DNA from: Yoonia algicola
GTDB lineage: Bacteria; Pseudomonadota; Alphaproteobacteria; Rhodobacterales; Rhodobacteraceae
DNA length: 32,000 nucleotides
Assembly (NCBI RefSeq): GCF_038443675.1
Contig: NZ_CP151762.1
Coordinates: 3,112,987-3,144,986 of the forward strand
Direction: 5' to 3'
A program made the position numbers and the translations under genes. Below the pieces are notes generated by a model, which worked only from the letters and a program-made list of their open reading frames with translations, was not told the DNA's origin and ran no database searches. Shown in pieces: positions 2,974-4,011 of the stretch. How positions within the stretch are numbered: position 1 is the stretch's first letter; each line of letters begins with the position of its first letter.

Positions 2974-4011
2974 ATGACTACGTTGTATCGCATTCTTATT
3001 GATACCTGCATTTGGCTTGATCTAGCTAAGAGCTACAGGTCTGCCCCGCTGGTCCATGCACTATTTGAAATGTGCAATAATGCTGAACTTGAGATCATTG
3101 TCCCTGACATTGTTTTGGAGGAGTTTGCGCGGAACAAAGACCGGATTTCATCAGAAGCTACGAAGTCGTTGCAAACTCATGTTAGATTAGTGAAGCAAGC
3201 CATTCCAAGCCATGCTGTCGGGGATCAGCAGCGGAATGCCCTTGTATCTCTTGACGATATTGACTTCACCGCAGCTGTGGGCAGCAGTCCCAGTATAGTA
3301 GCACAAGTAGAAGAATTGATGTCTCACCCCGAGAACATCAACATCGAAACCACGACCTTTCATCGCTCTAGGGCAGCTTTGCGCGGCTTGGAAAAACAAG
3401 CACCCTTTCATCGTGACACGAACAATATTGCAGACGCCATTCTGTTTGAGGTCTATGATGAACTCCGGTTAGGGAAAGCGCGAGAGCATATTGCGTTTGG
3501 TTTCGCCTCAACTAACTTTAGGGACTTCAGTGACCCGAGAGGAGACAATCGACTGCCTCATCCAGAGTTAGCATATGCTTTTTCTGAAAAGTCACTATTT
3601 ATCACTGACATCGCAAAGTTTGTTCAGGACGTCAGCCCTGACTTGTTGAATGACTTCGATTTACATCATGGATTGGCACCTGACTTCCGTTCTCTCTCTG
3701 ATCTTATGCTTGAAGAGGAGAAGTTAACCGACATGATCTGGTACTCTCGGCATATGGCAAGGCGAGCGGCTATCGAGAACGGTAATATCAAGGTGCTTGC
3801 AGACCAAGATTACTCTCGAGACCCATATAGACCCGGTGAGATACTTGATACCGTTTGGGAGGGTGCCCTCGCTGCAGCCAAAGAAGTCGAACTTCGATAT
3901 GGATTGGAAAACCTTGGTCCATGGGACGATTTTGAGTGGGGCATGCTAAACGGCAAGCTTTCAGCAATACGATGGATGCTTGGATATGATTGGGACATGC
4001 TAGATACCTGA
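2974..4011 (+). CDS. PIN-like nuclease domain protein with unrecognised Trp-rich C-terminal domain (345 aa)
   Basis: A GAGGG SD lies 5 nt upstream of the ATG. The N-terminal ~190 aa carries acidic residues in PIN order: D10 (ILIDTCIW), E49/E50 ([10 protein letters not shown]), D154 ([11 protein letters not shown]), N181/D184 (FASTNFRDF). I do not recognise the C-terminus ([31 protein letters not shown]). The sequence is visibly AT-richer than the flanking genes. Confidence 0.6.
   Translation: [345 protein letters not shown]

Follow-up and report, generated by a model that had tools for sequence, protein, structure and literature searches.

The window analysed here, a stretch of 32,000 nucleotides from Yoonia algicola (contig NZ_CP151762.1, positions 3,112,987 to 3,144,986), carries within its str/S10 ribosomal gene cluster a horizontally acquired cassette of a single gene, lying between tuf and rpsJ. 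The gene, an open reading frame (ORF) at 2974 to 4011 on the + strand, encodes a protein of two parts, an N-terminal PIN_12 domain predicted to be a metal-dependent nuclease and an acidic, tryptophan-rich C-terminal module that proves to be independent, widespread and portable among nucleases. The explanation favoured here, to which a probability of roughly one half is assigned, is that this gene is a stand-alone conflict gene of the abortive-infection type, directed against phages or plasmids. The features on which the argument draws are the following, in order along the window.

1644 to 2819, + strand: tuf (EF-Tu), a 391-amino acid ORF forming the conserved left flank, identified by its EF-Tu sequence and homologous in relatives to about 2919
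2831 to 2870, unstranded: perfect palindrome of 40 nucleotides between the tuf stop and the terminator, its arms 100% complementary (folding free energy, dG, -41.6 kcal/mol; z -7.5)
2887 to 2919, + strand: intrinsic terminator of tuf and left edge of the slot, with a 15-bp stem, a GAAA loop and UUUU after it
2920 to 4049, + strand: replaceable one-gene cassette of 1.13 kb, delimited by homology breakpoints against relatives
2965 to 2969, + strand: Shine-Dalgarno-like GAGGG, 4 nucleotides 5' of the ATG, seen in the sequence
2974 to 4011, + strand: ORF of 345 amino acids with an ATG start, comprising the PIN_12 nuclease domain, a linker and the C-terminal module
2992 to 3528, + strand: PIN_12 domain (PF16289), residues 7-185, with putative catalytic residues D10, E50, D154 and D184, from Pfam, conservation, and AlphaFold2 (AF2) and Foldseek
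3529 to 3687, + strand: linker, residues 186-238, with a GDxRxPH motif, two short helices and disorder at 230-236, from conservation, AF2 secondary structure and the predicted local distance difference test (pLDDT)
3688 to 4008, + strand: acidic Trp-rich C-terminal module, residues 239-345, from AF2, charge and library searches
4054 to 4082, + strand: promoter-like TTTACA-N17-TATACG, the right edge of the slot, kept in seven relatives
4207 to 4518, + strand: rpsJ (S10), the conserved right flank, from its ORF and the comparison of loci

The foreign character of the cassette is seen both in its composition and in its distribution. GC content falls to 0.45-0.49 over 2851-4050, against 0.55-0.61 on either side in a sliding window, and the ORF itself has a GC content of 0.470 and a third-codon-position GC content (GC3) of 0.468, compared with GC3 values of 0.55-0.73 in fusA, tuf, rpsJ, rplC, rplD, rplB and other neighbours. 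The ORF stands at z = -3.35 relative to windows of the same length, with equally low values in only 2 of 620. No homologue of the PIN protein occurs at this locus in the 80 related Rhodobacteraceae loci (L011-L090) used for comparison, including that of the closest relative, Loktanella sp. 5RATIMAR09 (L011), whose RplD is 99% identical to that of the window. The same tuf/rpsJ junctions are instead filled by other cargo in other species. The tuf-to-rpsJ distance, 1388 bp here, is 850-3440 bp in the Yoonia/Loktanella clade and about 60-200 bp in more distant genera. In L011, for example, the slot holds a different nuclease-type gene (236-880), for a 214-amino acid staphylococcal-nuclease homologue; conflict-type cargo in relatives comprises, besides this protein, SLATT_5, SUKH immunity proteins, OLD-TOPRIM with AAA_15/21, SIR2_2 and Fic.

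The borders of the cassette are sharp. Comparison by BLASTN with seven close relatives puts the left homology breakpoint at 2918-2920 in the five that retain that flank (2919 in L011 and L014), and homology restarts on the right at 4050 in five of the seven, with 4053 and 4074 in the remaining two. Within the variable segment the ORF stands alone, flanked by 54 nucleotides on its 5' side and 38 on its 3' side. The tuf terminator (dG -28.1 kcal/mol, z -7.2) is conserved in five relatives, with cargo divergence setting in directly after its T-run, and the TTTACA-N17-TATACG element that is kept where homology resumes is read as the predicted promoter of rpsJ. A terminator and a promoter mark these borders, and selection on the two signals can account for their sharpness. 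Direct repeats and att-like or attC-like sites were looked for at the borders and none were found, and site-specific insertion was therefore dropped as an explanation. A first-pass annotation, which worked from the letters of the window and a hand count of GC, had described the locus as a low-GC, foreign, single-gene insert encoding 345 amino acids with its own Shine-Dalgarno sequence, placed behind a tuf terminator and palindrome and ahead of a fresh rpsJ promoter; each element of that description is borne out by the measurements above, the promoter on comparative grounds. None of the outcomes that the annotation had named as fatal to its reading came to light.

The assignment of the N-terminal half is secure at the level of family. 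PF16289 (PIN_12, formerly DUF4935) matches residues 7-185 over model positions 1-172 of 172 with an E-value of 1.5e-16 and 61.7 bits, the gathering cutoff being 32 bits, and PIN_4, PIN_8 and PIN_3 match the same half more weakly. When 73 full-length homologues of 42-67% identity, drawn from Alpha-, Beta- and Gammaproteobacteria and Acidobacteria, are aligned, E50, D154 and D184 do not vary and D10 is conserved to at least 90%; T11, R137, H146 and N181 are also conserved. In the AF2 model (mean pLDDT 86.6, with the PIN domain mostly above 85), this half adopts the alpha/beta/alpha fold of PIN proteins, with the acidic quartet at strand ends and helix starts, as expected for such domains. Its best Foldseek matches in the PDB are VapC toxins (7vwo, 3zvk, 5wzf, 3tnd) and other PIN domains, with probabilities up to 0.99 and target TM scores of 0.5-0.6, at E-values of only 0.03 or higher; a search of PDB sequences with the family profile reached no PIN structure. 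From sequence and model, the N-terminal half is predicted to act as a metal-dependent nuclease of the VapC type, its site of four acids being intact; this activity, like the substrate, is what we infer. VapC-group PIN domains usually cut RNA. The first-pass annotation had recognised a PIN-like, DUF4935-type domain, now supported by the full-length Pfam match and by the VapC structures, and had named the acidic motifs; all of these are present, and D10, E50, D154 and D184 are conserved, but E49, also among them, is not. Database entries of the family, a known but uncharacterised one, carry the label "PIN domain-containing protein" and nothing more.

The C-terminal half had been called unrecognisable, and library and fold searches came back equally empty: nothing in Pfam, NCBIfam, PADLOC or PDB sequences matches it significantly, and Foldseek gives no fold match in the PDB. 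What the first-pass annotation did not anticipate is that this half is not private to the PIN family, being a mobile module that other nucleases carry as well. Its core, at about residues 239-345, consists of a WYxRH motif, a variable beta-hairpin insert, a W..A..AA segment and the stretch NLGPWxDFEWGMxNGKLSALRWxLGxxWDxLDT, and it always forms the C-terminus of the protein. AF2 models it as three helices with the hairpin insert, mostly at pLDDT above 90. The module of the window protein has a net charge of -9, a pI of 4.47 and six tryptophans, and the mean net charge over 120 members is -5.2.

Exhaustive phmmer searching with residues 190-345 against 1.84 billion representatives yields 971 representative clusters at E-values of 0.001 or below, many of them non-PIN proteins. 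In an index-based search with a profile built from the minimal module, 2567 proteins are hit, of which the top 120 are all 89-195 amino acids long and all called hypothetical. Among 149 module-bearing representatives, Pfam identifies PIN_12 in 58, Mrr_cat in one (P0240) and HNH_3 in one. Further fusions join the module to HNH (PF01844) in proteins of about 190 amino acids (P0294, P0362) and to an unnamed N-terminal domain with a GGxDGxKD motif (P0237, P0248), which by eye looks like a restriction endonuclease. The module also stands alone, in proteins of 90-150 amino acids, and in tandem (P0125, P0245, P0270-P0273), the latter arrangement hinting that it pairs with itself. These findings establish the C-terminal half, from its sequence relatives, as an independent and widespread unit that is portable among nucleases.

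Viruses also carry the module. In IMG/VR, 15 viral or proviral contigs encode the full-length fusion and eight the module alone. In three of the eight module-only loci (L113, L116, L118; diverged), the stop codon of an HNH endonuclease gene falls within the module ORF, and in two others the module ORF lies directly 3' of a gene for a protein like single-stranded DNA-binding protein (SSB) and of a Sak4-like gene. A 92-amino acid phage protein in a viral structure library (BFVD) has the same fold, with a probability of 1.00 and a target TM score of 0.77. The viral module proteins have no match in PHROGs, and tblastn with the window module and the viral minimal module was empty in 50,697 records of cultured phages.

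Two apparent leads concerning the module were set aside. A likeness of the C-terminus to ScoMcrA and type IV restriction, seen in a single-sequence match to 5zmm (E 0.13) and in a PADLOC match of residues 212-296 to mREase_IV (E 0.001), was reproduced neither with the family profile nor in Foldseek and is treated as chance. An apparent split into two genes, with a 205-amino acid PIN_12-only protein and a 116-amino acid module (L123-L127), is a frameshifted fused gene from a single population, as judged from the linker consensus in the alternative frame, an A-rich run at the break and 100% identity among the five contigs; it is thus no independent evidence. This locus (3322-4351) was recovered from several samples, lies in a low-GC patch (0.36 versus 0.48) and adjoins an Omp28 gene. 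A stand-alone module of 145 amino acids, P0177, lies between genes for a 334-amino acid ParB_N protein and a protein of 407-412 amino acids on an integrase-linked element, in the same order on two independent contigs (L091 3934-6723 and L092 1048-3837), and these may form a three-gene unit.

The genomic settings of homologues of the PIN protein point to mobile cargo. The homologues are solitary, and no one neighbour gene recurs across six genome contexts or 61 metagenome loci. The six contexts are a cluster with AbiE and VapC on a replicon that has ParAB and part of RepC; an island that includes an integrase, DUF5906 and MmeI; the cargo of an integrative and conjugative element, next to HEPN_AbiU2; an integrase-adjacent island; an island with a NERD protein; and, for the closest homologue on a long contig, a plain chromosomal site. 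A census of 149 neighbouring ORFs from the 61 independent metagenome loci, made as a plain tally, gives as recurrent families AbiJ/Abi_C, AbiE, HipA, GajA/Old, PD-Lambda-3_B, mad2/MADS, Stk2, type II methyltransferases, XamI, dCTP deaminase, MobA, a transposase and DUF3987; restriction-modification genes and integrases are also recurrent kinds of neighbour. In PLSDB the gene is found on 46 plasmids of Proteobacteria, Actinobacteria and Bacteroidota, 22 of them conjugative. Homologues are AT-shifted relative to their flanks in 15 of 18 loci. The full-length homologue on the Aeromonas plasmid pMCR5_045096 (L231 5909-8008) is cargo of a Gamma-Mobile-Trio (GMT) element, 42 nucleotides after a DUF2971 gene. 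Islands of the GMT class reportedly abound in defence systems (bioRxiv 10.1101/2023.03.28.534373). DUF2971 also occurs in 2 of the 61 metagenome neighbourhoods and may now and then act as a partner. The homologues are patchily distributed and foreign in composition, and their neighbourhoods vary and are rich in genes of defence, of toxin-antitoxin systems and of mobile elements; together this gives them the profile of mobile or defence-island cargo.

The only PIN_12 protein so far characterised supplies a functional precedent. Cosus (Brc24), encoded by a single-gene cassette of a mobile integron, blocks T7 completely, and the PIN_12-domain mutants T12A, D14A and D96A lose more than 10^5-fold of this protection (bioRxiv 10.1101/2024.07.02.601719). 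A Cosus homologue from the IncC plasmid pKAZ2, of 382 amino acids, matches PF16289 with an E-value of 2.4e-36. The suggestion of the first-pass annotation that the gene of the window is a defence or abortive-infection gene, or else an orphan toxin, fits both this precedent and the homologue contexts, and is retained as a candidate reading.

In the mechanism proposed for a stand-alone conflict gene, the cassette would occupy the one neutral position that two essential transcription units leave between them, behind the tuf terminator and ahead of the rpsJ promoter. The PIN_12 domain would be the toxic effector, and the acidic Trp-rich module, of about 105 residues, would be a regulatory partner of nucleases. 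The module would hold the PIN nuclease inactive in cis until a trigger such as an infection cue is met, upon which the nuclease would be released or activated, in a mode likened to that of fused toxin-antitoxin defence proteins; the system may double as an addiction module. Autoinhibition is favoured on three grounds: a lone active PIN toxin needs restraint and the cassette holds no antitoxin gene; the viral order of a nuclease followed by an overlapping small acidic protein is that of nuclease and immunity protein; and the acidity of the module fits the covering of a nuclease's basic substrate groove better than it fits the binding of nucleic acid. An inhibitory or otherwise regulatory role for the module and a defence phenotype are what we infer for this gene. 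A bolder extension makes the module a hitherto unrecognised and very widespread safety catch for nucleases, acting on the structurally unrelated PIN_12, HNH and Mrr/PD-(D/E)xK enzymes in cis when fused to them or in trans when encoded just 3' of them. The window protein would then be a defence nuclease fused to its own immunity domain, and the 90-amino acid phage copies would serve as immunity proteins for HNH nucleases of the phages themselves or as anti-defence decoys silencing PIN_12-module proteins; this is tentative and rather unlikely.

Several observations weigh against the reading of the gene as an autoinhibited defence nuclease. A single inhibitor domain fitting four unrelated nuclease folds would be unusual, and a role in sensing or oligomerisation would explain the same fusions. 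Stand-alone modules are not always found beside a nuclease, and the AF2 model has no confident packing between the two domains (predicted TM score, pTM, 0.62). The protein has no significant match in PADLOC-DB v2, where the best scores are the mREase_IV match mentioned above and PDC-M11A (E 0.039). The kinship with Cosus is also limited. BLASTP of the pKAZ2 homologue against the window protein gives no significant alignment (best E 0.15, off-register), and the C-terminal half of Cosus, which ends ...EVEPDWRSEYEDEEL, is unrelated and lacks the Trp-rich module with its WYxRH and GKLSALRW motifs; for want of pairwise similarity and of a related C-terminus, the precedent covers the PIN_12 domain only. 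Slot cargo in relatives includes ordinary accessory genes, namely NicO, DUF1275 and ion channels, and because the cargo is mixed, location alone is no sign of defence and the idea of the slot as a dedicated defence island was rejected; as a general accessory-gene slot, the location shows foreign origin and says nothing on function. Finally, a simple sigma-70 scan of 2780-4230 returned no promoter on the + strand, hence none within the cassette; the same scan missed the TTTACA-N17-TATACG element ahead of rpsJ, as the -10 hexamer of the latter ends in G.

The strongest alternative leaves the effector as it is and reassigns the module, as a domain that senses the trigger or oligomerises and so switches the nuclease on, or that targets a protein or nucleic acid substrate. 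The fusion data fit this model and the inhibitor model alike. A constant C-terminal module joined to varied N-terminal nucleases (PIN_12, HNH, Mrr_cat and the putative restriction endonuclease-like domain) has the appearance of effector swapping on a common sensor, as in defence proteins that combine a constant sensor with exchangeable effectors, and the tandem two-module proteins are in keeping with assembly. The invariant polar residues R259, H260, N313, K328, S330, R333, D341 and D344, like the invariant GxxxG-like pair G323/G327, suggest a binding site or a helix-packing interface. Against this, the minimal domain of about 90 residues is small for a specific sensor, and the arrangement of an HNH gene with an overlapping small acidic ORF is more like a nuclease-inhibitor pair. 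Strong acidity also speaks against direct binding of nucleic acid; binding through basic tails was considered, on account of Arg/Lys-rich N-termini in a few stand-alone forms, and rejected, as only 11% of extensions are net positive. A sensing or assembly role is judged a realistic possibility, if not a probable one.

An orphan toxin or a selfish addiction gene, kept by its mobility or by a penalty on its loss and of no defensive benefit to the host, is regarded as an unlikely reading, although PIN domains are classic toxin domains and homologues travel on plasmids, among them one of 10.4 kb from Azotobacter on which a PemK/MazF toxin gene is found too. Toxin-antitoxin genes surround the gene in several of its contexts, and a second slot of the same window holds a SocA/Panacea antitoxin gene and its partner. 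However, the flanks of 54 and 38 nucleotides leave no antitoxin gene in the cassette, and a lone active toxin would be lethal, so that self-control is needed and the explanation converges on the fused toxin-antitoxin model. Many fused toxin-antitoxin modules have proved to be defence systems, and the one PIN_12 protein that has been tested, Cosus, is a defence protein.

It is improbable that the gene is a mere passenger, silent or in decay and at present functionless. The lack of a detected promoter in the cassette and the existence of frameshifted copies elsewhere in the family (L123-L127, L112) would be in line with decay, but the frame is full-length and intact, all catalytic and module motifs are kept, the Shine-Dalgarno sequence is good, and a protein 99% identical (P0001) is encoded in an independent metagenome assembly. 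Very improbable, finally, is a housekeeping nuclease for the processing of rRNA, tRNA or mRNA recruited beside ribosomal protein genes: the PIN proteins Nob1 and Fcf1/Utp24 do process rRNA (PMC5499597) and the neighbours here are translation genes, but the gene is of foreign composition, none of the 80 related genomes has it at this locus, the homologues nearest to it occur in unrelated settings, on plasmids and on proviruses, and the slot elsewhere holds unrelated cargo.

The tuf/rpsJ slot is not the only one of its kind in the window. A second slot, between rplW and rplB, follows the same design of terminator, cargo, promoter-like element and, in this case, a ribosomal protein leader.

6353 to 7771: second low-GC cassette (rplW/rplB), with - strand ORFs at 7052 to 7513 and 6471 to 7052, a pair absent from all 80 relatives
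7775 to 7803: promoter-like TTGCCA-N17-TATACG
7857 to 7935: Rfam L2-Alphaproteobacteria ribosomal protein leader (RF03142, 49.1 bits), directly 5' of rplB

With its own L2 leader and promoter-like element, rplB is a separate regulated unit here. The first gene of the cassette is for an antitoxin with a SocA/Panacea domain (PF13274, E 1e-19); overlapping it by 1 nucleotide comes the gene of a 193-amino acid partner whose C-terminus is weakly like the NsnC and MAG6450 families and which has no match in the PDB; the pair looks like a Panacea-type toxin-antitoxin system. In both slots the cargo differs in nearly every Yoonia/Loktanella genome, while the junctions are identical, and the gaps reach 3.4 kb (tuf/rpsJ) and 3.9 kb (rplW/rplB), compared with about 60-200 and 95-157 bp, respectively, in distant genera. 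No integrases or repeats were seen in the two slots across L011-L090; as a guess, cargo may be exchanged through recombination in the ultra-conserved flanks. A third gap, between rplP and rpmC (10574-11950), contains a hydrophobic ORF of 77 amino acids (10741-10974, + strand) and one of 206 amino acids (11060-11680, - strand). The latter was considered as a recent import and rejected; it has host-like GC content, matches the solved but uncharacterised structures 2rg4 and 3bvc with E-values of 1e-107 or better, and looks resident.

Two smaller elements accompany the tuf/rpsJ slot. The 40-nucleotide palindrome is present in a single copy in the window and in the same place in L011 and L017, with a relative at the second-slot junction of L017, and may be an element like the repetitive extragenic palindromic (REP) sequences. 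A GC-rich hairpin with a T-run (4098-4118), in the conserved leader between the promoter-like element and rpsJ, could be an attenuator of the S10 operon; it has no Rfam family match.

The PIN-like nature of the DUF4935 family was already known, having been published in 2017 (PMC5499597). Two points are new: that the C-terminal half is a module in its own right, widespread, associated with nucleases and present in viral contigs too, and that the ribosomal gene cluster contains cargo slots between terminators and promoters. If the favoured explanation is true, a testable single-gene candidate is added to the nuclease-based anti-phage systems, and the large PIN_12/DUF4935 family gains a second architecture besides that of Cosus. 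The module is perhaps more important, as an unnamed family associated with at least three identified families of nucleases and one putative one, and borne by phages as well; to learn if its role is inhibition, sensing or assembly would make sense of a component that conflict systems use again and again. The slots indicate that, in Rhodobacteraceae, terminator-promoter gaps of the genome's most conserved gene cluster can serve as sites of cargo exchange, which bears on how accessory genes move between species.

Comparison with known systems places each of these elements. Defence hotspots in E. coli and Pseudomonas are fixed junctions of conserved genes with varied cargo (PMC10121019, PMC10250203), and the slots described here, like such core-genome hotspots and GMT islands, are fixed junctions between conserved genes whose cargo varies among strains; they differ in being terminator-promoter gaps of the str/S10 cluster, usually with one to three genes and without an integrase or att site. 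In a limited literature search, ribosomal protein operons were mentioned in none of the papers listed at the top.

Matelska et al. placed DUF4935 in the VapC group of PIN-like families, as proteins of about 350 amino acids and of unknown function whose genes are usually monocistronic; the PIN-like region lies at the N-terminus and has conserved acids for metal binding and a long helical insertion behind strand 2, while the C-terminal region lacks detectable homology (PMC5499597). The window protein fits all of these features, and its C-terminal part emerges here as a distinct module, found by itself and joined to other nucleases. The VapC toxins of type II VapBC systems have the D/E/D/D active-site layout in common with the PIN half and are its best structural matches, whereas the window protein has an additional helical insert of about 70 residues and a further C-terminal domain. 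A VapB antitoxin gene is small and usually lies 5' of the toxin gene and overlaps it; no VapB-like gene is present in the cassette, which has no second ORF, and no small neighbour is conserved among the homologues.

For the proposed restraint of the nuclease, two systems serve as analogies. In colicin E9 DNase with Im9, an HNH gene is followed by one for a small acidic helical protein, the order seen in L113, L116 and L118; the module has no detectable similarity to any Pfam family, and its inhibitory role is putative. CapRel(SJ46), the working analogy, is a single polypeptide with a toxic N-terminal enzyme and a C-terminal domain proposed both to restrain and to sense; it has no relation in sequence or fold to the window protein, in which autoinhibition would be of a comparable kind. 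The closest CHARACTERISED relative is Cosus, which differs from the window protein in architecture and shares with it the PIN_12 domain family, a similar size, a solitary gene and mobility.

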